Source: a virus (lineage: Duplodnaviria > Caudoviricetes). Taken from it: a stretch of 64,000 bases of DNA. The stretch's first letter is position 1; every line of letters begins with the position of its first letter. The position numbers were made by a program, and so were the translations under genes. Below the pieces are notes generated by a model, which searched no databases, was not told the DNA's origin, and saw nothing but the letters and a program-made list of their open reading frames with translations. The stretch is taken from positions 1-64,000 of the IMG/VR virus record IMGVR_UViG_2974644955_000001. One strand, written 5' to 3'. Positions 1 through 45,400 of this stretch are shown here, piece by piece.

Positions 1-255
1 ATGCTTGATGGCAACACAATCTCACAACTCGTCTCAGTGGTCATGATGGTAGCACCATCAGCTTCAGATCAGCATCTGGAGAACCACAGCCGTGAGACAA
101 TCTACCAGTTCCACGTAGAATCTGGAGCGCATGAACTTGCGCTCTGGGATGCGTGCGAAGAACTGGCCACAGCGTTCAATCAATTGGACCTGTGGGTGAT
201 GTACCAAGACACTTTGCAGCAACCTCATGCTTGGTGCAAAGGCATCTACAAGTGA
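1..255 (+). CDS. Hypothetical early protein (may extend upstream of the window)
   Basis: 84-codon ORF ending just before a terminator-like hairpin; no recognisable motif. Confidence 0.5.
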   Translation: MLDGNTISQLVSVVMMVAPSASDQHLENHSRETIYQFHVESGAHELALWDACEELATAFNQLDLWVMYQDTLQQPHAWCKGIYK

Positions 256-262
256 ACCATAG

Positions 263-294
263 ACCTCAACACCTACACGGGTGTTGGGGTTTTG
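263..294 (+). terminator. Intrinsic terminator
   Basis: ACCTCAACACC...GGTGTTGGGGT stem followed by TTTT directly after the ORF stop. Confidence 0.6.
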
Positions 295-363
295 GGTTTC
301 GCTGGGATAGGCAACCGGACTGACCTGTTCGAACGTCGGACGACAAAACCTTCCGGTTTTGCG

Positions 364-383
364 GGGGCTAACGCCCCTCGTGG
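364..383 (+). promoter_or_regulatory. Virion-RNAP hairpin promoter upstream of gp2-like gene
   Basis: GGGGC-TAAC-GCCCC-TCGT-GG: 5-bp stem, 4 nt, then GG, the N4 vRNAP promoter geometry; the same pattern recurs at 1057. Confidence 0.7.
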
Positions 384-429
384 CAGTTGAAAGACTGTCT
401 CAACCATGATCAACCAAAGGAGATATCTC

Positions 430-825
430 ATGGCTTTTAAGGCAATTGCAACCAACCGTGCAAAGACAACCGCAGCCAAAGCAGACGAAGACGAGTTCCA
501 GGGTCTCTGGATCAACGTCGGTCTTGTGACTGCTGACGGTGAAGGCGACGACGCCGAAACCAAGTTCAACCGTTTGCCTCGTGGCATCGCGGTGAGCGAC
601 CTGACGGAGCACAAAGTGTATGCTTCGACGAATCCCGAGTGGGCAGCGGAGGCGAACCTCGTCAACGCTCTGATCGCAAAGATCCGGGAGAAGGGCGCAC
701 AGCTTGGCGAAGGCGAAGCGATGCCGTTGGAATTCAGTGTCCAACTGTACCGTCGCCAGGAGCAAGTTGCTTCCGTCGGCACACCTGAAGTTGAGGTCGA
801 TCTCGACTCTCTGTTCGGAGCATAA
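430..825 (+). CDS. N4 gp2-like ssDNA-binding activator of RNAP II (middle transcription)
   Basis: LWINVG...RLPRGIAV...NALIAKI...SVQLYRR pattern; AAGGAG RBS before ATG 430; early position after a vRNAP promoter. Confidence 0.72.
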   Translation: MAFKAIATNRAKTTAAKADEDEFQGLWINVGLVTADGEGDDAETKFNRLPRGIAVSDLTEHKVYASTNPEWAAEANLVNALIAKIREKGAQLGEGEAMPLEFSVQLYRRQEQVASVGTPEVEVDLDSLFGA

Positions 826-832
826 CGCTCAA

Positions 833-870
833 ACCCCTCGTCACTTCGGTGGCGAGGGGTCCACAATTTT
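833..870 (+). terminator. Terminator hairpin after gp2-like gene
   Basis: ACCCCTCGTCAC-TTCG-GTGGCGAGGGGT 12-bp stem with UUCG loop; weak T tract. Confidence 0.7.
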
Positions 871-1056
871 ATTGCCAAAAATCATAGATTTTTGACTCTT
901 TCTTTTTGTGTTCGACTGAAACCTGACTTGATGAAGAATCAAGTCAGATTCAGCGAACTTAAAGTTAAGAGCAGATAGACCAGGAGTTCACACAAGTTGA
1001 ACTTCAAACATCAGCTTCAGACTCGGATAGACATCCATACCTTGTGCTCATCTCGT

Positions 1057-1076
1057 GCGGCTAACGCCGCTCTTGG
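1057..1076 (+). promoter_or_regulatory. Virion-RNAP hairpin promoter upstream of NADAR and RNAP1
   Basis: GCGGC-TAAC-GCCGC-TCTT-GG; same loop and spacing as 364-383, with compensatory stem changes. Confidence 0.75.
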
Positions 1077-1162
1077 TGTTTTGACTGCCATTTGGCTGAC
1101 TAAAACCTGAAAGTTCACAAATACCCGTGATCTGACTAAACCAAACAGAAAGGTAACTACCG

Positions 1163-1648
1163 ATGGAAATGACTGGAAACCTGCCTAAAACCACCAAGAA
1201 ACCTATCATGGGATTTCAAGGTGAGTACCGTTGGCTGTCCAACTTTTGGACTGCACCAATCGTCGTAACAGGGTTCGAATATCAGAACACTGAGGCAGCC
1301 TATCAGGCAGCCAAGACCATCAACGTGGCTCACCGTATGCAGTTCAAGAACATGACTGGTGGTGAGGCAAAACGTGCTGGTCGGAGTGTCATCATGAGAC
1401 ATGACTGGGACTTCGTGAAGCTGGAGATCATGGAACTGGTGCTTCGTGCCAAGTTCATGGCCCATGCTGATCTGGCTCTCAAGCTCATTGAGACTGGTGA
1501 TCGTGACATCGTTGAACTGAATACCTGGGGAGATACTCACTGGGGTCAGGTCAAAGACAAAGAAGGCAACCTCGTCGGAGAAAATGTGCTGGGCAAATTG
1601 CTCATGAACATTCGTTCGGACATCAATAAAGGACTCGCAAAGATATGA
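1163..1648 (+). CDS. NADAR (YbiA-like) family ADP-ribosyl hydrolase
   Basis: WLSNFW, TEAAYQAAK, WDFVKLEIMELVLRAKF, IVELNTWGDTHWG, GENVLGKLLMNIR: hallmark NADAR motifs. Confidence 0.9.
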   Translation: MEMTGNLPKTTKKPIMGFQGEYRWLSNFWTAPIVVTGFEYQNTEAAYQAAKTINVAHRMQFKNMTGGEAKRAGRSVIMRHDWDFVKLEIMELVLRAKFMAHADLALKLIETGDRDIVELNTWGDTHWGQVKDKEGNLVGENVLGKLLMNIRSDINKGLAKI

Positions 1649-2427
1649 CATCAATGGTCACAACTCAGTTGAATCTCGAAGAACTCTGCCATCGGAACCA
1701 ACTGATGGACGTTCTGCGAGAGCAGTTCTCACCTCTGACAGAAGATCCATTCAAGCTGGATGTTCTGTGTCAGATGTATCTGCACAAGCAAACGGACGTT
1801 CCGACTCTCGTTGGACTGTTCAGCCCCAAATGGGGTGAACCACAGGAAGTGGCAGAGATGCTCAAGGAAGTGGTGGAGGAAGACCTCGTGGACTTCGACA
1901 TGGAGAACATGAGGTTCATCCTCAAATATGAGATCACTCAAGATGTCGAAGACATCCTGGCTCATTACCAATTCCCACTGCCCATGATTGTTCCACCGAA
2001 GAAAGTGCAGAACAACCACATGGGATCTGGCTACTACGACAAACGTGGTCGGATTGTCCTCAATGGTTCAGATGTCTTCGATGACGAAGATGTGTGTCTC
2101 GATCACATCAATCGCTGCAACAGTGTCGCACTGACACTGAACACAAATGTGGTTGCATCGGCTGAAGGCAACATGATCCTTCCCAAACGAAAGATTGGTG
2201 AGGATTTCCTGGAATTCCAAAAGCGTCAGAAGCAGGCAGAAGTCTTCTACAACACATCCTTCGAAGTCATGACAGGGATGCTGACGTTGGGCAATGAGTT
2301 CTGGCTCACTCACAAGTATGACCGTCGTGGTCGTACCTATGCAGTGGGATATCACGTCAACTCGCAAGGCACAGACTACAACAAAGCTGTGCTGGAACTC
2401 TCACGAAAGGAGAAAATCATTGGATAA
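1645..2427 (+). CDS. RNA polymerase II subunit 1 (N4 gp15-like)
   Basis: FWLTHKYDRRGRTYAVGYHVNSQG (DxRGR motif of T7-type RNAP N-terminal half); size and position. Confidence 0.9.
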   Translation: MTSMVTTQLNLEELCHRNQLMDVLREQFSPLTEDPFKLDVLCQMYLHKQTDVPTLVGLFSPKWGEPQEVAEMLKEVVEEDLVDFDMENMRFILKYEITQDVEDILAHYQFPLPMIVPPKKVQNNHMGSGYYDKRGRIVLNGSDVFDDEDVCLDHINRCNSVALTLNTNVVASAEGNMILPKRKIGEDFLEFQKRQKQAEVFYNTSFEVMTGMLTLGNEFWLTHKYDRRGRTYAVGYHVNSQGTDYNKAVLELSRKEKIIG

Positions 2428-2512
2428 CTTCACCGCTGGCTTCGTATGTGGAGGATTGAGCGTATGCTTTCTCCTCTTCATCGTCGCCGTGTTACCGGAG
2501 ATTGTGTCATGA
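2420..2512 (+). CDS. Small membrane protein (TTG start)
   Basis: AAGGAG RBS before TTG 2420; hydrophobic segment; overlaps both neighbours. Confidence 0.4.
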   Translation: MDNFTAGFVCGGLSVCFLLFIVAVLPEIVS

Positions 2513-2652
2513 GAAAACTGGAATGGTTCTGTTACCAGCGTCAGTTGCTCATGCAATCCTTCATCAAAATGGCACAGGATATCACTGGTTCAACTGAACC
2601 CAGAACATGGTTTCCTGTCTATCATCGTCTCTACGAAAGGAACATGAAATGA
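2509..2652 (+). CDS. Hypothetical early protein
   Basis: ATGA coupling to both neighbours; GGAG RBS. Confidence 0.5.
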   Translation: MRKLEWFCYQRQLLMQSFIKMAQDITGSTEPRTWFPVYHRLYERNMK

Positions 2653-2753
2653 AATGGCCACTCGACGCCTTCTGGTATGACTTCTGGGAATTCTTCCTGG
2701 GAGCCAACCACATGAAGGCAAACTACATCCGCTGCTCGAATGTGAGGTACTGA
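2649..2753 (+). CDS. Hypothetical early peptide (34 aa, MKWPLDAFWYDFWEFF...)
   Basis: ATGA overlap and AAGGAA RBS; below the ORF-track size cutoff. Confidence 0.45.
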   Translation: MKWPLDAFWYDFWEFFLGANHMKANYIRCSNVRY

Positions 2754-2756
2754 ACC

Positions 2757-2942
2757 ATGTGGAATGTTATCAAAGCCCTCCTGGTTATAGCAGCCTTTCT
2801 CTTTCAGTTCGTCATTGTCTATGGCGCTGAATCAATAGCTGAAGAAACAGGAGACTATGGCCAAGCTATCTACGAAATGCTTTGGCTTCTCCTGCTGTTC
2901 TTCATCGCAGAATCTATGTTGAAGGAGGACAAAGATGGGTAA
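2757..2942 (+). CDS. Small two-TM membrane protein
   Basis: Two hydrophobic stretches; GAGG RBS. Confidence 0.55.
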   Translation: MWNVIKALLVIAAFLFQFVIVYGAESIAEETGDYGQAIYEMLWLLLLFFIAESMLKEDKDG

Positions 2943-3249
2943 AGAACCTGCACCCAAATCAGAGATGGTCAAAGAAATTGCTAGTGCCTATGGCATGACC
3001 GTCGAGGACAAACCCATGTCCAAAAGAGAAAAGCTGAAAGCCTGGCAAAAGAACTACGACAAGCTGGGCTTCAGCAACTTCCTATGTGGTGACGAAGCAC
3101 TCGTCACTGTCATGGAAAACGACAAGATCGAAGTGAAGATCCGGAAACAAACATCCGCAGATGAGTCCCGGAACTATCGCTTCGTCTTCGACACTCAATC
3201 GCAGTGTGAGCGTTTGCTCCCTGCCCTTCTGAAAGGACTCACCAAATGA
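2935..3249 (+). CDS. Hypothetical early protein
   Basis: 104-aa ORF with AAGGAGG RBS and phage-like codon usage. Confidence 0.65.
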   Translation: MGKEPAPKSEMVKEIASAYGMTVEDKPMSKREKLKAWQKNYDKLGFSNFLCGDEALVTVMENDKIEVKIRKQTSADESRNYRFVFDTQSQCERLLPALLKGLTK

Positions 3250-3374
3250 TCATTGTCAACGGTCTAACGAGGTCACTCGTGGTCTTTGGCAATGTATCAC
3301 ACAATGACTTCCAACTGTTCATGGCTCAAATGCAACACGCTGTGAACCTACACAAAGGGGATGATCCAGCATGA
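3246..3374 (+). CDS. Hypothetical early peptide (42 aa)
   Basis: ATGA-coupled at both ends; AAGGA RBS. Confidence 0.45.
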   Translation: MIIVNGLTRSLVVFGNVSHNDFQLFMAQMQHAVNLHKGDDPA

Positions 3375-3550
3375 TCACCGCTGAGATGTATGAAAAAGCC
3401 ACAGGCCACAAGCCTGTGGATGATGACCTGGAACGTGCAAACTGTCGTCAGGCAGGAGAACTGGGTCATTTCCACTGTGGATGGAACGAGGAAGAAAACC
3501 TTCCTCGGACCATGACTCCACCCTTCATCAAAAAGGAACTTCAACCATGA
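3371..3550 (+). CDS. Hypothetical early protein (MITAEMYEKATGHKPVDDDLERANC...)
   Basis: ATGA-coupled at both ends; C..GH..CGW motif. Confidence 0.55.
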   Translation: MITAEMYEKATGHKPVDDDLERANCRQAGELGHFHCGWNEEENLPRTMTPPFIKKELQP

Positions 3551-3792
3551 TCACCGGAGATGACATCCGTCGCCTTGAAGAAGAGGCGGCCAACAAACCA
3601 AAGAAGCTGCTTATCATCGACACGATGCAGTTCTTTGAAATCGAGATCCCAGAGGATGTCGATGCTGAGTCCTTCCTGGACTCTGACCTTTGTCGCCAAG
3701 TCTGTGCTGACAAAATCCTGAGTGGCATGACTGATCTTGAGATCAATCGTGTCATGAAACAAAACCCTCAAACCAAGGAGTTCGAAGAATGA
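3547..3792 (+). CDS. Hypothetical acidic early protein
   Basis: ATGA coupling; AAGGAA RBS. Confidence 0.55.
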   Translation: MITGDDIRRLEEEAANKPKKLLIIDTMQFFEIEIPEDVDAESFLDSDLCRQVCADKILSGMTDLEINRVMKQNPQTKEFEE

Positions 3793-3938
3793 AATTCTCA
3801 CATCTGAAATCTCAAGAAGAGATTGACCGCGAAGAAAGCAACCGTGCCATCAAAATGTGGGCATGGGTGATCATCTTCAGTGCAGCATTCTATGCACTGC
3901 TGTTCGCAGCGTTGATCAAATATGTCTTCTTCAACTGA
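3789..3938 (+). CDS. Small single-TM membrane protein
   Basis: AAGGAG RBS, ATGA overlap, hydrophobic WAWVIIFSAAFYALLFAALI. Confidence 0.5.
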   Translation: MKFSHLKSQEEIDREESNRAIKMWAWVIIFSAAFYALLFAALIKYVFFN

Positions 3939-4224
3939 AGAGGAAATCACGGAGCCTACAACAGCAGTCCAGGATCGCCACTACCTTTGTATGGAGATCC
4001 GTGAATACCGTCAGTTTGCAGAGGCTCTGATGTCGAACTGTTATCTCAACAGAGAGGCACAACCCTGCAAACTGAAAAACGCCAAAACCAAAAAGCTCAA
4101 AAATCTGAGGTCTGGAATTCGAAAATCTCCATACCTGCTGAAGTCCATCATCTGGAAAGAACAGCTTCGACAGATTGAGCAGGAGTTGGCCAAACGTATT
4201 CATAATGGAAGGAGATATCCGTGA
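3922..4224 (+). CDS. Hypothetical basic protein
   Basis: 100-aa ORF in the coupled early string. Confidence 0.5.
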   Translation: MSSSTEEEITEPTTAVQDRHYLCMEIREYRQFAEALMSNCYLNREAQPCKLKNAKTKKLKNLRSGIRKSPYLLKSIIWKEQLRQIEQELAKRIHNGRRYP

Positions 4225-4418
4225 GTAACCGCAAAAACTTTCTGTTCAGAAAGCACGCTGCTGCATTTGAGAGATACATCGTTCCGGCTCATGCGAGTCG
4301 GGCCGAGATCATGAGAGACTCTGAAGGCTACTGGCTCAACGTCTGGTGGCACTGTGGAGAAATCGCACCGCTTACGGTGCAAGAAGAAGCACAAGCATTA
4401 GGAGAAATGAAATGCTGA
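4221..4418 (+). CDS. Hypothetical protein (GTG start)
   Basis: AAGGAG RBS; GTGA overlap with the previous stop. Confidence 0.55.
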   Translation: MSNRKNFLFRKHAAAFERYIVPAHASRAEIMRDSEGYWLNVWWHCGEIAPLTVQEEAQALGEMKC

Positions 4419-5614
4419 AGGTCCAAGACTTCCGTGAACTGACTGGCCTCGAATATCTCATGGCTGACATCGCGTGCAAACACGATAAAGCCTACGAGAA
4501 GAAAGGCTGGGACGAACGTCTTCATCACTTCTCGGAGATCGACTTCAAAGATCCGAAGACTTTCAAAGACGCCAGCAACCCAATCGGGTTGAGGGCAGCC
4601 TACATCGCACTCGAAGATACTGCGATGGGTAAAGACAGTGGCTATACAATCAGCCTGGATGCTGCATCATCTGGACTGCAACTGCTGTCACTCTTGGTTT
4701 CATGTCCAAAGTCATGGAAACTGTGTGGTGGTGATGAGGGTATCCTCGACGCCTACATGCACATCTATATGTCACTGCACATGGACACGATCCTTGATCG
4801 AAAAGATGTGAAGCAGTGTATCATGACTGCTCTCTATGGTTCAACTGCACAGCCGAAGGCAATCTTCGGTGAGAGTGTAGATGTCTTCTACGAAGCAATG
4901 GAGAACATGGCACCTGGAGCCTGGGACTTGAACCTTGGTATCCAGGAGTTGTGGGATGAAGTGGATGGTACAACCTATGATTGGGTGTTGCCTGATAACT
5001 TCTATTGCTGCATCGAAACCCACGACAAGGAGATGATTCCTTTCACATTCCTAGATCAAGAATTCACAGTGATCCAGAAGGTGAATGAACGTCCCCGGTT
5101 CCACAAGGGACTGGGACCGAATCTGATCCACAGCATCGACGGCATGGTAGTGCGGGAGATGTATCGTCGGTGTCAGTATGACCTCAACATGATGGAGCGA
5201 GTTATGCTTCTGTTGATGTCTGATCCAGCCAAAATGGGAACCACTGGTAAATCTTCACAGATGGTTCAGACCCTCTGGGAGCATTACCAGGAAACTGGGT
5301 TCCTCAGTGTTCGTATCCTCGACTATCTCTATGAGGATACGTGTGGACTGGTGGACATGAATGTAATCCGTGCTTTGGTGAGCACCATGCCACTGAAACC
5401 ATTCGAACTGCTATCGGTGCATGACTGTTTCCGGTGTCACCCAAACTATGGCAACGATCTGCGTAAGCAGTACAATGTCATCATGGCTGACATCAATGAC
5501 AGCACAATCTTGCCTGTTATGGCCTCGCAAGTGGCCAATCAGAAGATCCAGGCAAAGAAAGTGGGTCATATCCCTCGGGAAGTGATCCTCAATGCGAACT
5601 ATACCCTGTCATGA
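4412..5614 (+). CDS. RNA polymerase II subunit 2 (N4 gp16-like, catalytic)
   Basis: Motif A SLDAASSGLQ, motif B RKDVKQCIMTALYGS, NLIHSIDG, motif C SVHDCF; GGAG RBS before ATG 4412. Confidence 0.93.
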   Translation: MLKVQDFRELTGLEYLMADIACKHDKAYEKKGWDERLHHFSEIDFKDPKTFKDASNPIGLRAAYIALEDTAMGKDSGYTISLDAASSGLQLLSLLVSCPKSWKLCGGDEGILDAYMHIYMSLHMDTILDRKDVKQCIMTALYGSTAQPKAIFGESVDVFYEAMENMAPGAWDLNLGIQELWDEVDGTTYDWVLPDNFYCCIETHDKEMIPFTFLDQEFTVIQKVNERPRFHKGLGPNLIHSIDGMVVREMYRRCQYDLNMMERVMLLLMSDPAKMGTTGKSSQMVQTLWEHYQETGFLSVRILDYLYEDTCGLVDMNVIRALVSTMPLKPFELLSVHDCFRCHPNYGNDLRKQYNVIMADINDSTILPVMASQVANQKIQAKKVGHIPREVILNANYTLS

Positions 5615-5781
5615 GACCAGTTCGTATCTACCTCAAGCATCATGTTCATGTTTCTGAACAAGATTTGCATCTCTACACAATCTTTTTGTGGAAGGAGTAT
5701 CATGTGGATTTTCTGGCTAATCGTTTCAACTATGATGAAACGAAAGGAAAATATGTCTACTTCTTTGAAGTGATGTACTGA
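5611..5781 (+). CDS. Hypothetical protein (56 aa)
   Basis: ATGA overlap with RNAP2; ends right before a terminator. Confidence 0.45.
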   Translation: MRPVRIYLKHHVHVSEQDLHLYTIFLWKEYHVDFLANRFNYDETKGKYVYFFEVMY

Positions 5782-5787
5782 CAAACA

Positions 5788-5824
5788 AACCCCTCCAGCT
5801 TATAGCTGGGGGGGTTACTTTTTT
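5788..5824 (+). terminator. Intrinsic terminator closing the early operon
   Basis: AACCCCTCCAGCT-TAT-AGCTGGGGGGGTT followed by a T run. Confidence 0.75.
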
Positions 5825-5846
5825 GACCAAACCAAGGAGACGACTG

Positions 5847-6032
5847 ATGTGGAGATACTATTACCTCGACGATCATACAAGGACTGTTTTTTACACAGAG
5901 ACAGAACTTGGTGAAGATCGGCCAGATCTGGTCTTCGTTGGCATGAGCCAAAACCCAAACCCAAGGATGGCTGTTGCTCTCTTTGTTCAGAAAGACTTGT
6001 CTCCACAAGGGTACAAGATAAAAGCTCTCTGA
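5847..6032 (+). CDS. Hypothetical protein
   Basis: AAGGAG RBS before ATG 5847. Confidence 0.55.
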   Translation: MWRYYYLDDHTRTVFYTETELGEDRPDLVFVGMSQNPNPRMAVALFVQKDLSPQGYKIKAL

Positions 6033-23341: not shown

Positions 23342-23417
23342 TTTTACTCCCTGTTCTTGGTTTGTTCTTCATGACGCGAACCGCGCCGGGAAATTGAAAT
23401 CGAAGGAGTTTTTCCAA

Positions 23418-23717
23418 ATGTGTCGTCGCTCAGAAATTCATGAAAAAGTGTATGGCAATGTTGTCATAGATGAGATGACTGGCTGTCATATTTGGCAAGG
23501 CTCAGATTCCGGTAACGGAAGGGGTGGGGGCTACCCCAGGATGTGTCTAAGTGGACAGACAGTGGCTGTGCATCGTGTTATGTACACTCACGTCCATGGA
23601 TACATCCCTGGCAAGAAACAGATTGACCACAAATGCAGGAATCGTATGTGTGTCAATCCTGATCATTTAGAAATGGTTACTCACAAAGAGAACCAAAGGA
23701 GAAGAGACAATGCGTAA
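23418..23717 (+). CDS. HNH endonuclease (homing type)
   Basis: GCHIWQG, GYPRM, VHRVMY, IDHKCRNRMCVNPDHLEMVTHKEN. Confidence 0.88.
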   Translation: MCRRSEIHEKVYGNVVIDEMTGCHIWQGSDSGNGRGGGYPRMCLSGQTVAVHRVMYTHVHGYIPGKKQIDHKCRNRMCVNPDHLEMVTHKENQRRRDNA

Positions 23718-24276
23718 ACTGTTAATGATACTTGCACTGCCCTTGGTATTGGCGGCATGTGCTTCACCCCAACCCATCTGTGACCGAGAGGCACAGGAAT
23801 GGAACAAATTTGATACCCAGGAGGATCAATGTGATGGAACAAGCAATTATGGCAACTGGAGTGGTTTTGGTTGGCCTGGTGATTCTCGGCCTGACAATGC
23901 AGGTGATCAATCTGGTCCGGATTCAGACAACCCTTCGACGGGTGGAGACACTGGAGGCCCGGATACTGGCTCGCCTTCTGATGGCGGAAACCCAGGTGGC
24001 GACGGAGACTCTGACGGAGATTCCGGGAATGACTCCGGTGACACTGGAGGATCTGGTTCGAATGACTCAGGAGGAGATGGATCCGGATCTGATAACTCCG
24101 GCGACGGACGAGGAAATTCTGGAGGTTCTAAAGGGAACAATGGTCACGGAAACGGAGACCAATCATCCCCAGGGAATTCTGGAGGCAACAATAATGCCGA
24201 AAACTCAGCGAACTCCGGACGAGGAAACTCGGGTAAAGGCAAAGGCGGACACAAAGGTGAAGCCAACAACAACTAA
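23710..24276 (+). CDS. Lipoprotein with long Gly/Asp/Ser/Asn low-complexity tail
   Basis: Lipobox LAAC after a hydrophobic signal; C...C pair; disordered G/D/S/N-rich C-terminal ~135 aa. Confidence 0.72.
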   Translation: MRKLLMILALPLVLAACASPQPICDREAQEWNKFDTQEDQCDGTSNYGNWSGFGWPGDSRPDNAGDQSGPDSDNPSTGGDTGGPDTGSPSDGGNPGGDGDSDGDSGNDSGDTGGSGSNDSGGDGSGSDNSGDGRGNSGGSKGNNGHGNGDQSSPGNSGGNNNAENSANSGRGNSGKGKGGHKGEANNN

Positions 24277-24288
24277 GGTGTATCCGAA

Positions 24289-24678
24289 ATGATCTTTGTC
24301 TTTGGTTCAAACAAAGCAGGCATCCATGGTGCAGGAGCGGCTCTCTATGCCAAGAAGCACCGTGGAGCCAAGCAAGGAATCGGAGAGGGCATAGTTGGAA
24401 ACAGCTATGCCCTTCCCACTAAAGGATTCAAGGTCGAGGAAATCCCTCTCCTTGAAATCAAAAACAGCGTCAATCGCTTCATCGAAGTGGCTGAGTATTG
24501 GGCTTTGCGTGGTGCAGAGTTCCAGGTTACACGAGTTGGCTGTGGTCTAGGAGGTAAACTGGATTCGGACATCGCTCCGATGTTCAAGGCTGCCCCTGAC
24601 AACTGTCTGTTTGATGAGTATTGGAAGCCCTGGCTCGACACATATGATGTGAAGCGGAGGTACTGGGGTACATTCTGA
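24289..24678 (+). CDS. Macrodomain-like protein (DarG/TARG1-type loop)
   Basis: IFVFGSNKAGIHGAGAA, YALPTK and FQVTRVGCGLGG correspond to macro-fold ADP-ribose-binding loops. Confidence 0.65.
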   Translation: MIFVFGSNKAGIHGAGAALYAKKHRGAKQGIGEGIVGNSYALPTKGFKVEEIPLLEIKNSVNRFIEVAEYWALRGAEFQVTRVGCGLGGKLDSDIAPMFKAAPDNCLFDEYWKPWLDTYDVKRRYWGTF

Positions 24679-25318: not shown

Positions 25319-25900
25319 ATGGAGATTTATTATGCAGGGATCGGCGCACGAGACACTCCCCAAGACGTATGCAGAAAGATGTTTACAGCGGGTAAAGTCC
25401 TCTGGGAAGCAGGAGTTACACTCAGATCCGGAGGAGCCAAAGGTGCCGACACTGCATTCGAATCTGGCGCTCTCTGCGCGGCAAATGGGGAAAAGTCATC
25501 TGATGCAGTCCATGATCTACGGAAAGATGATGGCACTAACTGGGATCGCATCGAAATCTATTTGCCCTTCAAGAGATTTAACGGCCACCCAAGTTCTCGC
25601 TATGGAACAACAAAGGCTGCACGGCAGATCGCAAGTCATTTCCACCCTAAGTGGGAGATACTCTCATGCACAGGACGCGATTTTATGGGACGTAATGCGT
25701 ACCAGATTCTTGGAGCCGGACTCGATCTACCAGTCTCTTTCGTCTTATGTTGGACTCCTGAAGGACGGATCACGGGGGGAACAGGACAAGCTCTCCGACA
25801 TGCCAAACACCTTGACATCCCCATCCTCAATTTCGCAGTTGAAGATGACGACACTATCAGTGATTTTATCATCTCCACAGCAGAAAGGATGCGTGCATGA
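25319..25900 (+). CDS. SLOG/DprA-like (Rossmannoid) protein
   Basis: YAGIGARDTP, LRSGGAKGADTAFE, RNAYQILG, CWTP, GGTGQALRHA. Confidence 0.8.
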   Translation: MEIYYAGIGARDTPQDVCRKMFTAGKVLWEAGVTLRSGGAKGADTAFESGALCAANGEKSSDAVHDLRKDDGTNWDRIEIYLPFKRFNGHPSSRYGTTKAARQIASHFHPKWEILSCTGRDFMGRNAYQILGAGLDLPVSFVLCWTPEGRITGGTGQALRHAKHLDIPILNFAVEDDDTISDFIISTAERMRA

Positions 25901-39432: not shown

Positions 39433-42400
39433 TCAATCTAGCATCAGGTTGTACCATGGGTTCAGTTCTGGTGCTGCAAACAGCATTTCCATACCCGTAG
39501 CATAATCCAACCGTCCCTCGATCATGACCTGGAAGATGTTATCCTGGATCGGAGATCCGATATCAGGAAGCATCATGTTCAGAGCCAGTGACCGAACTGG
39601 GTTCTCCCGGATCTGCTTCATTGCGATCTTCGCAATACGCAGTTTGAAGGACGGGAACCACAGAAGACCCATACGTTCCAGATAGGATCGTGTCCGACCC
39701 GGAGCAGGAGTGAAGTTCACGAACTCTTCGTTCATCCGGGTAATAGCCTGCGACTCGCTAACTCCCTGTTTGATCAGGTGGTCGTAGTAGATAGACTTAG
39801 CCAAGAAGTCACCATACTGAGTTGCCCTGTTGGCAGCCTTGTACATATCGGTGGACTTCGAAACCATCCCAATCTTCACAATACCACCACCCACAGGCAG
39901 CTTGTCAGCGAGTTTCTCCATGTACTCAGCCAGCTTACCAGATGTGATTGCCACATCCAGGTCAGTGATACCCTCAGACAGTTGCTTGTAGGCACCAGCT
40001 TCGATCATAGGAGCAATCGTCATACGCTTGTTCAGATCTTCGATCACTCGGATCTTGTCTTCAATCACAGTCCGACGCTGTTGGTTGTTACCAGCAAGCA
40101 GCAACTGAGCCTGAAGCTCTTTGATCTTCACTTCGTTGTTGTTGTACTCTTCGATCTCAGCCAGCTTCGAACGGAAATCCTTCACCATGGTTTTGTGAGG
40201 GACACCAGCATTCATCAACTGGATAGCGTTCGAACGCATGTTCATGGCAGGAACGATCAGAGAGCGAACCACAATGATATCCTTGGCCGTGGCTACGATC
40301 CCCTGGAAGCCTTCCTCACCAGCACTGAGCCACCGCATAGCACTACGTCCCAGGAGACGCTCTGTGCTCACACGCACGGCTTTCTGGACCTGATCAGGCA
40401 TACGAGACTTCCCATTCCACATATCAGTGATGGAAGCCTCACGATAACCTACAGACAGATTGATCATGGCCCGAGGGATCATGACACCATCAGAACCGAA
40501 GATGTTCTCCAGATAAACCTTGGTGGTTTGTGGAACCAAAGACCAAGTATCCTTGTGGATAGGATCCTCAGACTCTTTGAAGTCAACGAACGTGCTCTCA
40601 GATCCACGCTCACGCTGATCCCAGACCTTCTTCAGTTCATCTGCCAGAGTCTTGTTGTATTCAGCAGCAAGGCTTTCTTCCACCTGACGACCAGCCCAAG
40701 CACCCATCATGACTGCAAGGTTCTCTTCACGACCAGAGTGCAGATCCATCACATCCTTGGAGACAGACAGTTCAAAGCCCTGGATGGAACCATCTTCAGC
40801 ATGGACAGGCATGACGTTTTCTTGATCATTTTCGACCGTAGTTGATTCACGAAGCTGATCGTTCACCAGACCGGGGACCAGACCATCCTCATTCGAGATG
40901 TATCCAGCAGTGTTCCCAGTGACGCTGAGACCGTTGCTTGTGTCCACACCACGATAGGTATTGGCCACGTTCTGGAGAGCACCCTGTGTATAGGCACCCT
41001 GACGACGAACGTTGGAGATGTAATAGGATTTCGGGAACACCGAAGATGCGTCACCTGTATAGGCTCCCAGCTTCTTGTACCCTTTCCGGTTCATCTCACG
41101 CTCAGACTCATCCAGTTCCACAACGATCTGGAGGTTTTTGCCACCTTCATTGGGGATATACCCCTTCCAAGCATTCAGACGTGCTTGGTTCGAAGGCTCT
41201 TTGGCTTCTTCCTGTTCGCTCAACTGTTGCAGATATGTCACAATAGCAACGATTGCATTGGGATCGTTCTGCCAAAGCTGAACCACATCCTCACGAGTGG
41301 ATGGATCCATGACATCAATTGCCTTGATCGAGATCCAACGATCCAGAAGACCTTCCACTTCAGCAGGAATCGAACCTTCCAGACCATTCATAATGGCATA
41401 GGCATTCCGCATCAGCATCTTGCCAACGATACCGTTGGACATGAAGTTTGCCAGTTGCTCACCCTTCTGGATAGCAGCATCAGCATTCGACTGGTTCAGC
41501 TTGGTCCGGATTTCGTTCTCGATGTTGTTCAGCATTGTCTGACGAGTCGAGCGTTCTTCCATCACCTTCATGGAGTTCTGCATGTTGTTCACATCCAGCA
41601 CTGAATAGACATCAGTCTTGGCCAGAGTGTTGAACATGGACTTCCACTGTTCCTTCGAAGGAGGAGTCTGGAACACACGCTCCAGGATACCAGGAAGATC
41701 CTCACGGAAAGCCTGACGCATACCAGCGATACCTGCGTTGATCTTATCCAGGAGAGCAGTGATACGCTCATTCTGACGATCTGTACCCACCATCTCAGTG
41801 ACCAGTTCCTGGAATGGAATCAAGACCTTCCATCCTTCAAACTGGTTCACGAACCGTTTCGAGGCTTCACCTGTCAGTGCAGCACCCTCACGAGAGAGAA
41901 GGTTTGTACCAGCCACAGTCACTGTACCCATCAACAGCTTCACAGCAGTGTTGCGAGTCGAGGCTTGAACATCAGCGTTCTTCTCACGCATCATGCCAGA
42001 GACGCTGGAGAATGCCCCAGACACATAGTTGTCTGCATTCTCCAGATTGGTCGTGATGTGAGACAGAACCCGATACTCTTCGTTCACGTCGTGATCGACG
42101 ATAGTAGCAGCAATCAGATCCAGAACCTCTTTCGGTGGCTTCGTGTCAGCGTCCAGAGAAGCAGTGAGCTTCTGCATGGTGAATGCTGTCATCTTCTGCA
42201 TGAATGCAGGCAGAGTGCCTTGGATCGAGTTGTCCCCAGTCGGTTGAGGGATCTGCTCCATCACAGCTTTCATCCGAGTGGATGTCTGGCTCAAACCAAA
42301 GAGAACAGCAACAGCGTGTCCAGGTGTTGCATCTTTGTCACTCAGAGTGTTCACCACAGCAGAGTAGATGTTGTTGGCTTCAGTACCTTCACCGAACATC

Positions 42401-45400
42401 TGAGGATCCAGATTGTCCAAGATATGCTGGAAGACACGAGTCAACTGGATCCGAGATTGAGGAGTCAGTTTCATCTCAGACAGCATGATACCGTAGATCG
42501 CTTTGAAGGTAGCCTGATCCCGTGTGTTGTGCAGCAGTCCAGCCTGACGCAGATCGTCGATCACCCGTTGGGCGTTGGCCAGTTCCAGAGAGGTACGCTG
42601 CACCTGCTCATCGGAAGCCTTATCAGCAATCCAGTCACGGAGAGTGTTGATCCAGTAGTTGGTGAAGTTGTGGAATGGATCATCCGTCTGAGGAGGACCA
42701 CCGTTACCACCACCATCTCCATTGTTTCCACCACCGGAAACAATAACTCCACCACCCCCGGTTCCACCATCATTGTCTCCAAATAGGACACGAGTGTTGA
42801 AGACCGTGTGGCTGAACATATCCTGACGAACACCACCCATGATCCGACGCATCAGTTTAACCACTGCATCAGAGATCTTCTTCAGGATGTTGGCCTGCTC
42901 ATTTTCCAGGGTACGACGTACACCCTGATTGGACAGAGCATATGCCATGAATTCATTGATCGCAGATGCCTTGTCCTGGGGCTTACCTTTGACAAAGCGA
43001 CGGTTCATCACAGACTGAGCACGCAGCACAGCCTTGTTATCGGATTCAATCTCGACGAACTGGCGAGCAAGATCTTCCAGACGCTCCACAGCAGGGTTCT
43101 TCTTCCCTTCGTAGTGCTCCAGCACTTTCCCATATGTGGCAGCATGAACCATCTCATGAAGGATAGTCTCGTTGCTCTTTGTGGTGATGTAGATGATGTC
43201 GTTCTTCGCATCATACGTCCCACGAGCACGCAGAACAGACCCATCATCAGGCATGTTCTCCCACTTCCATTGGTTCAATTGATCCAGAGTTCCGAAGATC
43301 ACACGAGTATCACCCAGCAGTGGCTTGAGGATATCCACTGTCTGCTTTTCATTCTGTGTCCATTTGGTCACTTTCAGAACGGTACGAGCATCAGAAACTG
43401 TGACTGGGGTTTTTGTCTCAGCCCGGTCATTGATGTTGGATCCAGGATCTTTCATCTCCAGTTCGATACGTGCATTGGTTTCCGTCCGGTTCCATTCAGA
43501 ACCATCTTCAGAGAAACCAATTCCACCACCACCCATCTGATCGACAGACTTCTGCATCTGAGCAATGATCTTCTTCCGAGCCTTGTTCTCTTTGTAACGC
43601 TCTTTCAGTTGCTCATGCAGTTCTTTCCAGTTGGCAGCCACAACGGTTTTCTTCTTGAAGTTGCCCAGCACATCAGCCGCAGCAGCTTCAAAAGTTGCTG
43701 GATCATCAACACGTTCCAGGAAAGACTCAAAGTTCTGAAGAGCCATGCCCAAGACATCACGCTTCCAGGATTTGTTCACAGCTTCGTTGATCTGAGGGCT
43801 GTAATCCCGGATCTTCGTAACAGGCACGTCAAGGCCGTCAAAGACCCCTAAAACGTCTTCAGGGGCATTATCTGACCCAAAGAAGAAATTCATCATCATC
43901 GCATCACCAGAACCAATGACCATGAATGGCAGGGCTTTCACACCGATATCATCAGGCAGAGGCATACGAGCCGGAGTCCGGATTCCTTCGTCCATGTTCG
44001 ACGACACACGCATGTCAGTCAGCTTCTTATCGAAGCCACCAATTGCCAGAGTCTGATCATCTGACCGGAAGATCGGAGTCAGTTGGTACATCTCTTTCTG
44101 GATCCGCTCAAACGTTGCACGAGGCAATTGAGCAGGACTACGGACACCAGCTTCCTTTACAGCGTCAGCGATGGCCTTGTCATACATCCGTTGGACATAA
44201 GCGTTCTGCATGTTGGTGACGAGCACCAGCATATCATTCAGTTGCTCGATACGAGGTCCAAGAACCTCACGAGTTGCATCAGTCAAAGCCTGACCAATGG
44301 TAAACTGCACAGCAGTTTTGAACTTGTTCACCTGATCAATCGGGAACACGAAGTTCTTGTCTGGATTCTTTGGCAGAAACAGACCCATGTTGGCCATGTC
44401 TTCCCGGATCTCAGGGTAGAAATACTCTTCATAGGATTGGTTCTCACCCATCCCTTGAGCCTTCTCATAGAAGTCCAGCAGCATGTCCCCAGCAACACCA
44501 GAAGCCACACCTTGGACACCAGAACCATAGTTGACCTTGGTCATCGGGTTCTTGGCAGAACTACGGGTCATCCGGTATTCGATAGATCCATCAGGAGTTT
44601 CGACCCTTTCACTCTCAGAGAATGCCCATGCCAGACGTTTGGCAGCAGCACGTTGCTTCCGTTGCCATGGTTTCAGATCCGTACCAGCGGCAGCCAGAAG
44701 GTCATCAGTCCGTTGAGCCACTTGCTCATAGAGGTCAGTGGTTTGCTTTGAACCAAAATAATCATTCACTGTCCGACCGATCTTCCCAAGGAAGAGACCG
44801 ATACGGTTGAAGTTTTCCCACTCTTCAGCAGCAATCAAACCATGGCCAAAGTTCACCATCATGTTTGCAGCACCGTTGGTCAAACCATCAAGCTCAAAGC
44901 TCAGAGATGTCTCAAAGGAAGTTTCACCACTTTCCAGAGCCAACTCCATAGATGCCATAGCTTCAATGGCCCCAAGCACAGCAGGGTCATCAGACTGGAG
45001 AGCCTCAATGTAGGTATCCACATCGACCTCACCCCCAGTGAGGATCGCCTTGGTCATGTCCACAGCAGGACGGAACTTCGCTTCAAAGGCTTCTTTCACC
45101 TCAGAAAGAACCTCTGTCTCATTCCGCTTCTCGACTTTGAACAGACCAGAAGCCTGTGCAATCCCCAACCAGAAACCATCCATATCAGCCTTGTCATTCG
45201 TATCGACAGTGCTCCACGTAGGAGATGCAAAGAAACGAAGGAGTTTATTGGCTTGAGGGTTCGGACCCTGATACTGGTGACGACCTACTTTCGTGATCCC
45301 GACCGGGTAGTAGATCAGAGCCTGGATGTTATCACCCAGAGCAGACATGATCTCATTCACCTCAATGATGTTCAGACGGACTGTGGCATTCTTGCCCAGT

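Follow-up and report, generated by a model that had tools for sequence, protein, structure and literature searches.

Early region of the phage genome

The analyzed stretch of DNA, termed the window below, comprises 64,000 nt and represents the left 64 kb of the 74.7-kb genome of an N4-like roseophage (Schitoviridae, Rhodovirinae-like). Its early region contains the following features:

364–377, plus strand: GC hairpin 1 (GGGGC-TAAC-GCCCC; DNA fold), preceding the gp2-like gene; candidate vRNAP early promoter 1
406–825, plus strand: N4 gp2-like early protein, a homologue of the RNAPII cofactor (PHROG 4099, E = 8.7e-35)
1057–1070, plus strand: GC hairpin 2 (GCGGC-TAAC-GCCGC; DNA fold), about 95 nt before the NADAR gene; candidate vRNAP early promoter 2
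1163–1648, plus strand: NADAR, a predicted YbiA-type ADP-ribosyl N-glycohydrolase of 161 aa (PF08719); first cistron of the RNAP1 operon
1645–2427, plus strand: RNAP1, the N4 gp15-like small subunit of RNAPII (80–83% identity to the annotated RNAP1 of phages R2C and R7L)
4346–5614, plus strand: RNAP2, N4 gp16-like (PF00940, E = 2.3e-6; 75–80% identity to annotated RNAP2)

The hairpin at 1057–1070 consists of a GC stem of 5 bp and a loop of 4 nt. A simple scan also rated it as terminator-like. Both hairpins carry the 10-nt core GGCTAACGCC, of which the window contains exactly two copies, at positions 366 and 1059; in a control for this recurrence, 3 of 100 shuffled sequences gave four matches with at most one mismatch. 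Hairpins with different stems, for example CCGCC/GGCGG, are present at the equivalent place in the relatives R7L, L092 and L093. In addition, all five phages that were compared share a leader, TGACTAAACC...TAAC, ahead of the first cistron; in the window, this conserved leader follows the hairpin at 1057–1070. The hairpin loop has a length of 3 nt in N4, as opposed to 4 nt in the two window hairpins. A scan for sigma-70 promoters across positions 1–6000 did not yield more sites than were found in shuffled sequences. We infer that the hairpins at 364–377 and 1057–1070 are candidate vRNAP promoters, and the injected vRNAP would transcribe the NADAR gene from the latter.

The first-pass annotation had described the NADAR gene as the first ORF after a vRNAP promoter, ahead of RNAP1, and as the first gene to be expressed. 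The analysis confirmed the NADAR and revealed the hairpin and the overlap with RNAP1, but the NADAR is not the first gene of the early region. The hairpin at 364–377 leads the gp2-like gene further upstream, the homologues of which are annotated as N4 gp2-like or as Pfam Phage_N4_Gp2 in R2C, L092 and L093, and therefore the NADAR gene opens the second of the units that are led by a hairpin. At its 3′ end, the TGA of the NADAR gene overlaps the ATG of RNAP1 by 4 nt (ATGA at 1645–1648), and the two genes may be translationally coupled. The conserved leader is located directly before RNAP1, with no NADAR gene between them, in R7L, DSS3phi2 and V12; in R2C/DFL12phi1, L092, L093 and G014, a NADAR gene lies between the leader and RNAP1. 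The NADAR gene is thus an accessory early gene whose position is precisely that between the operon's conserved leader and the start codon of RNAP1.

Classification of the NADAR

The product of ORF 1163–1648 matched the Pfam NADAR profile (PF08719) over positions 9–162 of 163 with 82.6 bits (E = 4.9e-23, cut-off 35.1), PHROG 1017 with E = 4.8e-43, and NCBIfam TIGR02464 with 76.5 bits (cut-off 73.7). The closest solved structure is that of E. coli YbiA (2b3w, E = 1e-14), and the V-E of the last strand is kept. The invariant residues are the SNF motif, E44, Y47, Q48, K51, E118, N120, W122, D124, W127 and G128, with no variation at E44, K51 and E118 across 27 homologues. The active-site roles in NADARs belong to a Glu and a Lys (E88 and K95 of the E. 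coli C7 NADAR) and to an acidic residue in the last strand (PMC11543638). At the level of sequence, the catalytic residues of the window NADAR are intact and its enzyme class is established.

Within this class, the last-strand Glu (E118, neither Asp nor His) and the bare core of 161 aa with no added domain place the protein in the YbiA subfamily. Two other types of NADAR were ruled out. For a DarT1-linked NADAR (DarG1, BC4488 family), the last-strand residue is Glu instead of Asp and the neighbors are the gp2-like gene and RNAP1; inspection of the window ORFs revealed no darT. For the T4 gp30.3/AdfN type, the window NADAR reached only 24.5 bits against PF08010, below the cut-off of 36, and carries Glu instead of His.

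The ART module of the vRNAP

The vRNAP gene and the two modules relevant here are located as follows:

39433–50715, minus strand: vRNAP, a polyvalent protein of 3760 aa (PF21769, E = 1.3e-46) with N4_RNAP_helical, ART-PolyVal and zincin domains
46555–46956, minus strand: zincin metallopeptidase module (HEMAH, aa 1291), adjoining the ART module (Peptidase_M90, E = 6.9e-6; SprT-like, E = 5.8e-5)
47287–47637, minus strand: ART-PolyVal module (PF18760), aa 1027–1143 of the vRNAP; an indel relative to the closest vRNAP

For the vRNAP, 93 homologues were found. Its ART module scored 36.5 bits against PF18760 at aa 1023–1096 (40.1 bits in a second search, cut-off 31.2), in a match that spans only positions 5–70 of the 140 profile positions, that is, the N-terminal half. 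In a full-length alignment, H1029, F1055-x-T1057, D1120 and E1130 are shared with 11 to 24 vRNAP ARTs; they correspond to the His of strand 1, the aromatic position of strand 2 and the acidic positions of strand 5 that characterize the family. The aromatic residue of strand 2 is Phe, not Tyr, in all aligned N4-type members. The AF2 model of the module (pLDDT 78) matched diphtheria toxin, SAIP, MbcT, RES and tankyrase with TM scores of 0.4–0.5. In the closest vRNAP (P0003; 81% identity in the polymerase region), precisely the residues of the ART module are missing. The nearest relatives of the ART itself (P0071 and L030) show 46–57% identity, but the vRNAPs that host them only about 37–43%. Because the ART is absent so precisely from the closest vRNAP, and because the nearest ARTs reside in distant vRNAPs, it is regarded as a cassette.

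T4 Alt is an ART that is packaged in the virion and injected with the DNA. By analogy, the window ART would enter the host along with the DNA, and a T4 Alt-like modification of host macromolecules is predicted for it. Both would be capsid-delivered ARTs that are present at infection; however, T4 Alt is a stand-alone protein of the R-S-E clade, whereas the window ART, a domain of the H-Y-[E/D] clade, forms part of the vRNAP polyprotein, beside a zincin peptidase. The fusion of an ART to an N4-like vRNAP has already been described, with the prediction of a T4 Alt-like, protein-targeting activity (Iyer et al., 2017, PMC5512222), and the family has been named ‘N4-like’ (Iyer et al., 2022, PMC9503650). 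Judged by its sequence, the window ART is a member of this known group of H-Y-[E/D] polyvalent-protein ARTs, carried in the vRNAP as a shuffled cassette. With the ‘N4-like’ ART-PolyVal/Tox-ART-HYD2 family, the prototype of which is the vRNAP of Roseovarius Plymouth podovirus 1 (PMC5512222, PMC9503650), it has in common the Pfam assignment above the cut-off, the H...D motif, and the order of ART, zincin and N4-type RNAP inside one virion protein. It differs by its divergence, by an insert of about 10 residues after strand 1, and by its presence or absence as a cassette among close relatives.

A macrodomain and a DprA-like protein

Two additional genes named in the first-pass annotation are located as follows:

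24289–24678, plus strand: compact macrodomain-fold protein of the A1S_2505 family, homologue of N4 gp14, TARG1/DarG-like (NF049995, AF2, Foldseek)
25319–25900, plus strand: DprA-like Rossmannoid protein, SLOG superfamily (PHROG 768, E = 2.5e-51)

The product of ORF 24289–24678 matched the NCBIfam family A1S_2505 (NF049995) with 127 bits; it matched no Pfam family, Macro included, and a sequence-only search of the PDB gave no match either. With its AF2 model (pLDDT 96.5), the best Foldseek matches were macrodomains, TARG1 (4j5q) being the first and DarTG (7omu) and DarG (5m3i/5m3e) among the others, with the exception of one designed hydrolase. In a weak profile alignment (E = 0.48), P-T-K45 falls on I-T-K84 of TARG1 and GCGLGG on GCGLD. 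The protein is called a macrodomain because the fold search was decisive, the profile search having given only weak matches to TARG1. Its probable function is that of a DarG/TARG1-like eraser or of a hydrolase of an ADP-ribose derivative. The macro fold, a Lys in register with the catalytic one and the phosphate loop GCGLGG connect it with the DarG and TARG1 macrodomains, with phage anti-DarTG2 factors (the chimallivirus DarG2-like protein, PMC13309987) and with N4 gp14, which belongs to the same NCBIfam family. In contrast to this group, it has only 129 aa and lacks a DarT-binding domain, and while gp14 of N4 precedes RNAP1, the macro gene of the roseophage lineage is found in the replication module instead.

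The macro gene is present in 36 of the 43 Schitoviridae records, in genomes with as well as without an ART, including coliphage N4 (gp14), in which no ART was found. It is a near-core gene of the Schitoviridae, and a TARG1/DarG-like fold can be proposed for the entire A1S_2505 family including N4 gp14, which has been unannotated. The DprA-like protein, for which the match to Pfam DNA_processg_A was weak (E = 0.004, below the cut-off), is by its PHROG assignment a common phage protein of the SLOG family. PADLOC returned only weak, uninformative matches for the NADAR, the vRNAP, the macrodomain and the DprA-like protein. Three assignments of the first-pass annotation are thereby corroborated: the ART-like domain in the injected vRNAP, by the PF18760 score above the cut-off, the conserved residues and the ART-type matches of the AF2 model; the DarG/TARG1-like macrodomain at 24289, by the A1S_2505 and Foldseek matches; and the SLOG protein at 25319, by PHROG 768. 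The ART in the vRNAP had, in addition, been part of a proposal thought to be new for N4-like phages; the observation is correct, but it had been made before (PMC5512222).

Predicted ADP-ribose erasers upstream of RNAP1

A new observation is that an ADP-ribose eraser, either a macrodomain or a NADAR, and often together with DUF4326, recurs just 5′ of RNAP1 across the Schitoviridae. N4 has the gene order gp12 (DUF4326), gp13, gp14 (macrodomain) and gp15 (RNAP1), and G014 has DUF4326-NADAR-RNAP1. A further relative (G025) encodes a NADAR::DUF4326 fusion near a macrodomain and a weak YAcAr/SLOG match. No DUF4326 was found in the window phage.

The exchange of macrodomain and NADAR beside RNAP1 suggests a testable link between ADP-ribosylation defenses and the ssDNA-dependent transcription of N4. 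The site just upstream of RNAP1 might be a dedicated eraser slot, filled by a macrodomain in the N4-proper lineages and, in several roseophage lineages, by a NADAR; exposed ssDNA would provide the functional tie to the middle polymerase. N4-type transcription would expose ssDNA in extruded hairpin promoters and in the ssDNA templates of RNAPII and gp2, and such ssDNA is what DarT and other ssDNA-specific ADP-ribosyltransferases would modify. As the templates would be open to DarT-like ARTs, an eraser would be co-expressed with the middle polymerase. We offer this functional tie as a speculation to which we assign a low probability.

Independent occurrence of the ART and the NADAR

Relatives in IMG/VR were collected by a vRNAP alignment search (78 loci), which replaced a search with the single protein RNAP1 (6 loci), and 36 near-complete N4-like genomes were scored for both genes. 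An ART was present in eight and a NADAR in five of the 36 genomes: one genome, that of the window phage itself, contained both, seven contained only the ART, four only the NADAR, and 24 neither. There was no association between the two genes (odds ratio 0.86, p = 1). When the roseophage-like subset was considered together with L092 and L093, both genes were found in 2 genomes versus 2.8 expected. The order gp2-NADAR-RNAP1 also occurs in phages with an ART-less vRNAP (DFL12phi1/R2C, a 71,672-bp contig and G014), and at least seven near-complete ART-bearing phages had no NADAR. As weak evidence, no NADAR match was found for the contig of the closest vRNAP relative (70,533 bp) or for that of the closest ART (72,680 bp). 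Altogether, the ART and the NADAR occur independently across N4-like phages.

This distribution bears directly on the first of two models in the first-pass annotation, in which the virion ART would mark DNA or proteins of the host, perhaps the phage DNA as well, and the early NADAR or the macrodomain would reset the phage targets. If true, such a pairing would reveal a new logic of phage take-over, with the toxin being injected and the antidote expressed first. The window genome does encode both proteins with the family-conserved residues intact, a second contig (64,865 bp) pairs an ART-bearing vRNAP with a NADAR, and a precedent exists in YarT, an ART of the HYD1 clade that is neutralized by a YbiA-type NADAR (PMC11125620). 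However, the likeness to that toxin-antitoxin pair is confined to one genome encoding an ART of the H-Y-[E/D] clade and a YbiA-type NADAR: yarT and ybiA are adjacent, form one operon and are co-inherited, whereas the window genes are 46 kb apart, have different evolutionary histories and do not co-occur in relatives, and the window ART belongs to the HYD2/PolyVal clade. Moreover, ART-less phages keep the NADAR in the same slot while ART-bearing phages do without it, and the macro gene is near-core irrespective of the ART. NADARs are not known to act on ADP-ribose other than that linked to bases. The modeled ART, by contrast, resembles ARTs of the diphtheria-toxin, RES and MbcT types and not DarT, and proteins are its predicted targets (PMC5512222). 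Since the ART and the NADAR show no co-occurrence beyond chance, the model of a writer/eraser pair fails, and we regard it as highly improbable. The negative result is clear, and the parts fall into known classes, namely orphan counter-defense NADARs, ‘N4-like’ polyvalent-protein ARTs and phage macrodomains.

A putative counter-defense role of the NADAR

All phage NADARs tested to date strip DNA of ADP-ribose that is linked to guanine, and DarTG1 is countered by several of them (PMC11257639, PMC11125620). Across aa 12–161, the window NADAR has 41.9% identity to the NADAR of phage HildyBeyeler, which is Bas33 (PMC11619597). The NADARs of Bas32 and Bas33 are identical, and this protein neutralizes DarT1 and allows plating again on hosts with DarTG1 (PMC11257639/PMC11825919). 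The window NADAR is most likely an orphan-antitoxin-like early counter-defense enzyme. It would hydrolyze ADP-ribose that is N-glycosidically linked to bases in phage DNA, with ADP-ribosyl-guanine as the presumed substrate, and the mark would be written by a DNA-ADP-ribosylating host defense of the DarT1 or YarT kind. Three points speak against this role. The window NADAR is of the YbiA type (Glu) and not of the Asp type that is linked to DarT1; E. coli YbiA and T4 gp30.3, although active in vitro, did not relieve the toxicity of DarT1 in one study (PMC11125620); and DarTG1 was not seen in a sample of the host class, in which DarT (PF14487) was detected in 15 of 401 Alphaproteobacteria. A Macro domain was immediately adjacent in all 15 cases (DarTG2 type) and a NADAR in none, a count for which the sensitivity towards DarG1-type NADARs is uncertain.

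The lack of DarTG1 in this sample speaks for an alternative in which the NADAR, together with the macrodomain, the DprA-like/SLOG protein and, in relatives, DUF4326, would degrade soluble ADP-ribose-derived immune signals or toxins and not DNA adducts. Such a role has been proposed, and Macro, NADAR, SLOG and DUF4326 show non-random co-occurrence and fusions in DNA viruses (Iyer et al., 2022, PMC9503650); the gene orders in G014, G025 and N4, which group DUF4326 with a NADAR or a macrodomain, point in the same direction. However, the window phage lacks DUF4326, the tested phage NADARs act on DNA as described above, and cleavage of signaling nucleotides has been demonstrated for no NADAR, so that we consider this role rather unlikely. 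Far less probable still, and in our view close to negligible, is a metabolic function as a YbiA-like N-glycosidase that detoxifies intermediates of the riboflavin pathway, the NADAR then being an auxiliary metabolic gene. The match to TIGR02464, ‘riboflavin biosynthesis intermediates N-glycosidase’, is above the cut-off, and many homologues are labeled ‘ribA/ribD-fused’ by JGI, but no riboflavin genes were noted beside the NADAR gene. Its position at the head of the earliest polymerase operon, and the macrodomain that replaces or joins the NADAR in the RNAP1 slot of other Schitoviridae, argue for ADP-ribose biology.

On balance, and with modest confidence, we favor the explanation that the NADAR, the ART, the macrodomain and the DprA-like protein are independent modules and that the NADAR is a counter-defense eraser. 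This agrees with the second model of the first-pass annotation, erasers as independent counter-defense factors, which fits the distributions of ART, NADAR and macrodomain as well as the published orphan NADARs that neutralize DarT1. Similar to the orphan phage NADARs directed against DarTG1 (AdfN/T4 gp30.3, NADAR-Bas32 and NADAR-Bas60; Johannesman, Carlson & LeRoux, PMC11257639/PMC11825919), the window NADAR is a stand-alone protein with conserved catalytic residues and, by analogy, an early one. Unlike them, it is encoded as the first cistron of the RNAP1 operon in an N4-type podovirus of marine Alphaproteobacteria, and it is of the YbiA type (Glu), whereas gp30.3 is of the His type. The range of orphan NADARs would thus include N4-like podoviruses that infect marine Alphaproteobacteria, in which they occupy a fixed, putatively coupled position in the earliest polymerase operon.

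Sequence features and phage placement

The source record is a 74,704-bp IMG/VR virus rated 100% complete, of which the window covers bases 1–64000. Megablast places it among the N4-like roseophages (Schitoviridae, Rhodovirinae), with the Dinoroseobacter phages R7L, R2C and DFL12phi1 and the Ruegeria phages V12 and DSS3phi2 as nearest named relatives (~78% nucleotide identity, conserved early genes). The relevant features are:

364–377, hairpin with the same core as the next, preceding an N4 gp2-like gene (406–825)
1057–1070, GC hairpin GCGGC-TAAC-GCCGC, ~95 nt upstream of NADAR, candidate promoter of the virion RNA polymerase (vRNAP)
1163–1648, + strand, NADAR, 161 aa; Pfam PF08719, E 4.9e-23, 82.6 bits (cut-off 35.1)
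24289–24678, + strand, macro-like protein; NCBIfam A1S_2505, 127 bits
25319–25900, + strand, DprA-like protein; PHROG 768, E 2.5e-51
39433–50715, − strand, vRNAP, 3760 aa, with ART-PolyVal, zincin and N4 polymerase domains
47287–47637, − strand, ART module, vRNAP aa 1027–1143, a precise indel of 117 aa when set against the closest vRNAP

The NADAR also matches PHROG 1017 (E 4.8e-43); among solved structures, E. coli YbiA (2b3w, E 1e-14) comes closest. Among 26 aligned homologues, S26-N27-F28, E44, Y47, Q48, K51, E118, N120, W122, D124, W127 and G128 are invariant. The NADAR catalytic centre consists of a Glu/Lys pair and an acidic residue in the last strand, which sorts the family into a YbiA subfamily (Glu), a DarT1-linked subfamily (Asp) and the T4 gp30.3 type (His) (PMC11543638, PMC11125620). 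Because the last-strand residue is Glu and the protein passes TIGR02464 (76.5 bits, cut-off 73.7), it is a YbiA-type NADAR with intact catalytic residues.

ART-PolyVal (PF18760) scores 36.5 bits in the vRNAP (cut-off 31.2; aa 1023–1096), and the zincin carries HEMAH at aa 1291. The Pfam match is confined to the N-terminal half of the ART profile; alignment with 11–24 vRNAP ARTs shows the whole domain, with H1029, F-x-T, D1120 and E1130 conserved. An AF2 model (pLDDT 78) matches diphtheria toxin, SAIP, MbcT, RES toxins and tankyrase, which points to an ARTD-type fold. A second HExxH motif, HEMVH, lies at aa 2520 (~43150, − strand), distinct from the ART-adjacent zincin; its His and Glu (H2520, E2521, H2524) are invariant across 31 vRNAPs.

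The protein at 24289–24678 gave no Pfam match in the profile search. Its AF2 model (pLDDT 96.5) has, one designed hydrolase excepted, macrodomains led by TARG1, DarTG and DarG as best Foldseek matches, and in a weak profile alignment P-T-K45 coincides with the catalytic-Lys motif of TARG1, and GCGLGG with the loop that binds phosphate. These profile, alignment and fold matches therefore confirm the four domain calls of the first-pass annotation: NADAR, an ART in the injected vRNAP, a DarG/TARG1-like macrodomain and a SLOG protein.

Directly upstream of the macro gene, a 188-aa ORF (23710–24276, + strand; PHROG 23810, E 7e-18) carries a signal of lipoprotein type (…LVLAAC), after which comes an extended low-complexity stretch rich in Gly, Ser, Asp and Asn. 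A small ORF at 23394–23717 (+ strand) contains a motif resembling that of HNH endonucleases (…DHKCRNRMCVNPDHLE…HKEN) and, in line with the annotation of relatives, probably encodes a homing endonuclease.

Early gene order

The window contains exactly two copies of the 10-nt hairpin core GGCTAACGCC, one in each listed hairpin. Relatives have a hairpin at the equivalent place with complementary stems that differ in sequence, and a conserved leader reaching into the ribosome-binding region is common to all compared phages; both hairpins are therefore plausible vRNAP promoters. With one of them and the gp2-like gene standing upstream, NADAR heads the second of the two hairpin-led units as its first cistron and is not, as had been proposed, the first gene expressed. 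It does precede RNAP1, the N4 gp15-like RNAPII subunit, whose start overlaps the NADAR stop by 4 nt (ATGA, 1645–1648). NADAR forms an indel between leader and RNAP1 start; in R7L, DSS3phi2 and V12 the leader joins RNAP1 directly. Directly 3′ of the gp2-like gene, a strong GC hairpin (828–870, + strand; TTCG loop, T-rich tail), missed by a simple terminator scan, is likely a terminator between the gp2 and NADAR-RNAP1 units.

Distribution of ART, NADAR and macro genes

The first-pass annotation had proposed, as one of two models, that the virion-delivered ART and the early-expressed NADAR form a split toxin-antidote pair. We aligned 31 vRNAPs, retrieved 78 IMG/VR vRNAP loci and searched 43 whole records, the named phages R7L and R2C included (33 at least 90% complete), with Pfam and NCBIfam profiles. 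NADAR occurs in six of the 43: the window, DFL12phi1, R2C (conspecific with DFL12phi1), G014, G025 and, sub-threshold, G026. ART-PolyVal occurs in nine: the window, G003, G013, G035, R7L and four records equal in size to EE36phi1, V12, DS-1410Ws-06 and RD-1410W1-01. A custom HMM upheld the ART calls and the absence from DFL12phi1. Only the window has both. After exclusion of the duplicate species and records <84% complete, one genome has both, seven ART only, four NADAR only and 24 neither (odds ratio 0.86, Fisher p = 1). A 64,865-bp contig (L092) combines an ART-bearing vRNAP (P0006) with gp2-NADAR-RNAP1; a 71,672-bp contig (L093) has the same gene order, yet its vRNAP (P0031) lacks the ART. 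In the roseophage-like subset, with these two contigs counted, two genomes have both versus 2.8 expected. There is therefore no co-occurrence of NADAR with the ART beyond chance, an outcome the annotation had itself named as refuting the pair.

The independence of macro and ART is clearer still: A1S_2505 genes occur in 36 of the 43 records, including coliphage N4 (gp14, 153 bits), in which the ART-PolyVal search found no ART. In two otherwise complete N4-like records, the macro-like gene appears cut short or broken by TGA stops (G003:C1:58328-58573, G009:C1:5946-6044); a near-core gene may be decaying there, or the sequencing or assembly may be at fault.

The ART also has a history different from that of the NADAR. 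The closest vRNAP, P0003 (81% identity in the polymerase region), lacks exactly aa 1027–1143, its flanks abutting at residues 936/935, and the nearest ARTs (P0071 and P0069, E 1e-40; L030, 57% identity) reside in vRNAPs just ~37–43% identical to that of the window; this indicates that the ART is a cassette shuffled within vRNAP N-terminal regions.

A candidate eraser slot beside RNAP1

In ~20 non-roseophage Schitoviridae, the macro gene lies 100–1050 nt upstream of RNAP1, and DUF4326 is encoded close by. In coliphage N4 (NC_008720, 3605–5412) the order is gp12 (DUF4326), gp13, gp14 (macro, annotated as hypothetical) and gp15 (RNAP1); in G014 it is DUF4326, NADAR and RNAP1, with a 4-nt overlap; and G025 has a NADAR::DUF4326 fusion, macro and RNAP1 inside 3.5 kb. 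All of these lack the ART. In roseophage lineages NADAR occupies the RNAP1-adjacent slot, and the macro gene has shifted ~23 kb into the replication module. Macro and NADAR thus substitute for one another at a single position next to the gene of the middle polymerase, and an ADP-ribose eraser just upstream of RNAP1 recurs across Schitoviridae. One hypothesis is that ssDNA-dependent transcription in N4 would be specially exposed to ssDNA-directed ADP-ribosylation.

The G025 fusion (290 aa; L186, 3943–4815, − strand), from a non-roseophage N4-like genome, adjoins a protein with a weak YAcAr (SLOG) match, with the macro gene 1.4 kb away.

Candidate targets of the erasers

An injected ART with NADAR as its antidote is thus not supported: the sequence features are real, and the co-occurrence counts show no association between ART and NADAR. 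The toxin-antitoxin pair YarT-YbiA provides a biochemical precedent that keeps such an arrangement conceivable (PMC11125620), but its genes are adjacent and its ART is of the HYD1 clade, and it does not rescue the pairing against the distribution data. Nor is the ART in the vRNAP new. ARTs fused to N4-like vRNAPs were described with Roseovarius Plymouth podovirus 1 as prototype, which has an H-Y-D active site (Tox-ART-HYD2 clade) and was proposed to work on host proteins as T4 Alt does (Iyer et al., 2017, PMC5512222); a later survey counts the "N4-like" family as one of the most frequent kinds of ART in viruses (Iyer et al., 2022, PMC9503650). NADAR, vRNAP ART and macro each belong to already known kinds.

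The alternative, erasers acting as independent anti-DarTG defences, fits the distribution data, and slot exchange in phages lacking the ART supports independent early erasers. Orphan phage NADARs counter DarTG1, including NADAR-Bas32, identical in Bas32 and Bas33 (Johannesman et al., PMC11257639); Bas33 is phage HildyBeyeler (PMC11619597), and the protein tested is thus the one with 41.9% identity to the window NADAR. However, DarT was found in 15 of 401 sampled Alphaproteobacteria, and all 15 loci have an immediately adjacent Macro domain (DarTG2 type) and none an adjacent NADAR; therefore, DarTG1 was not found in this sample of the host class. The NADAR may instead counter another guanine-directed ART or target soluble ADP-ribose derivatives, the latter as put forward in PMC9503650.
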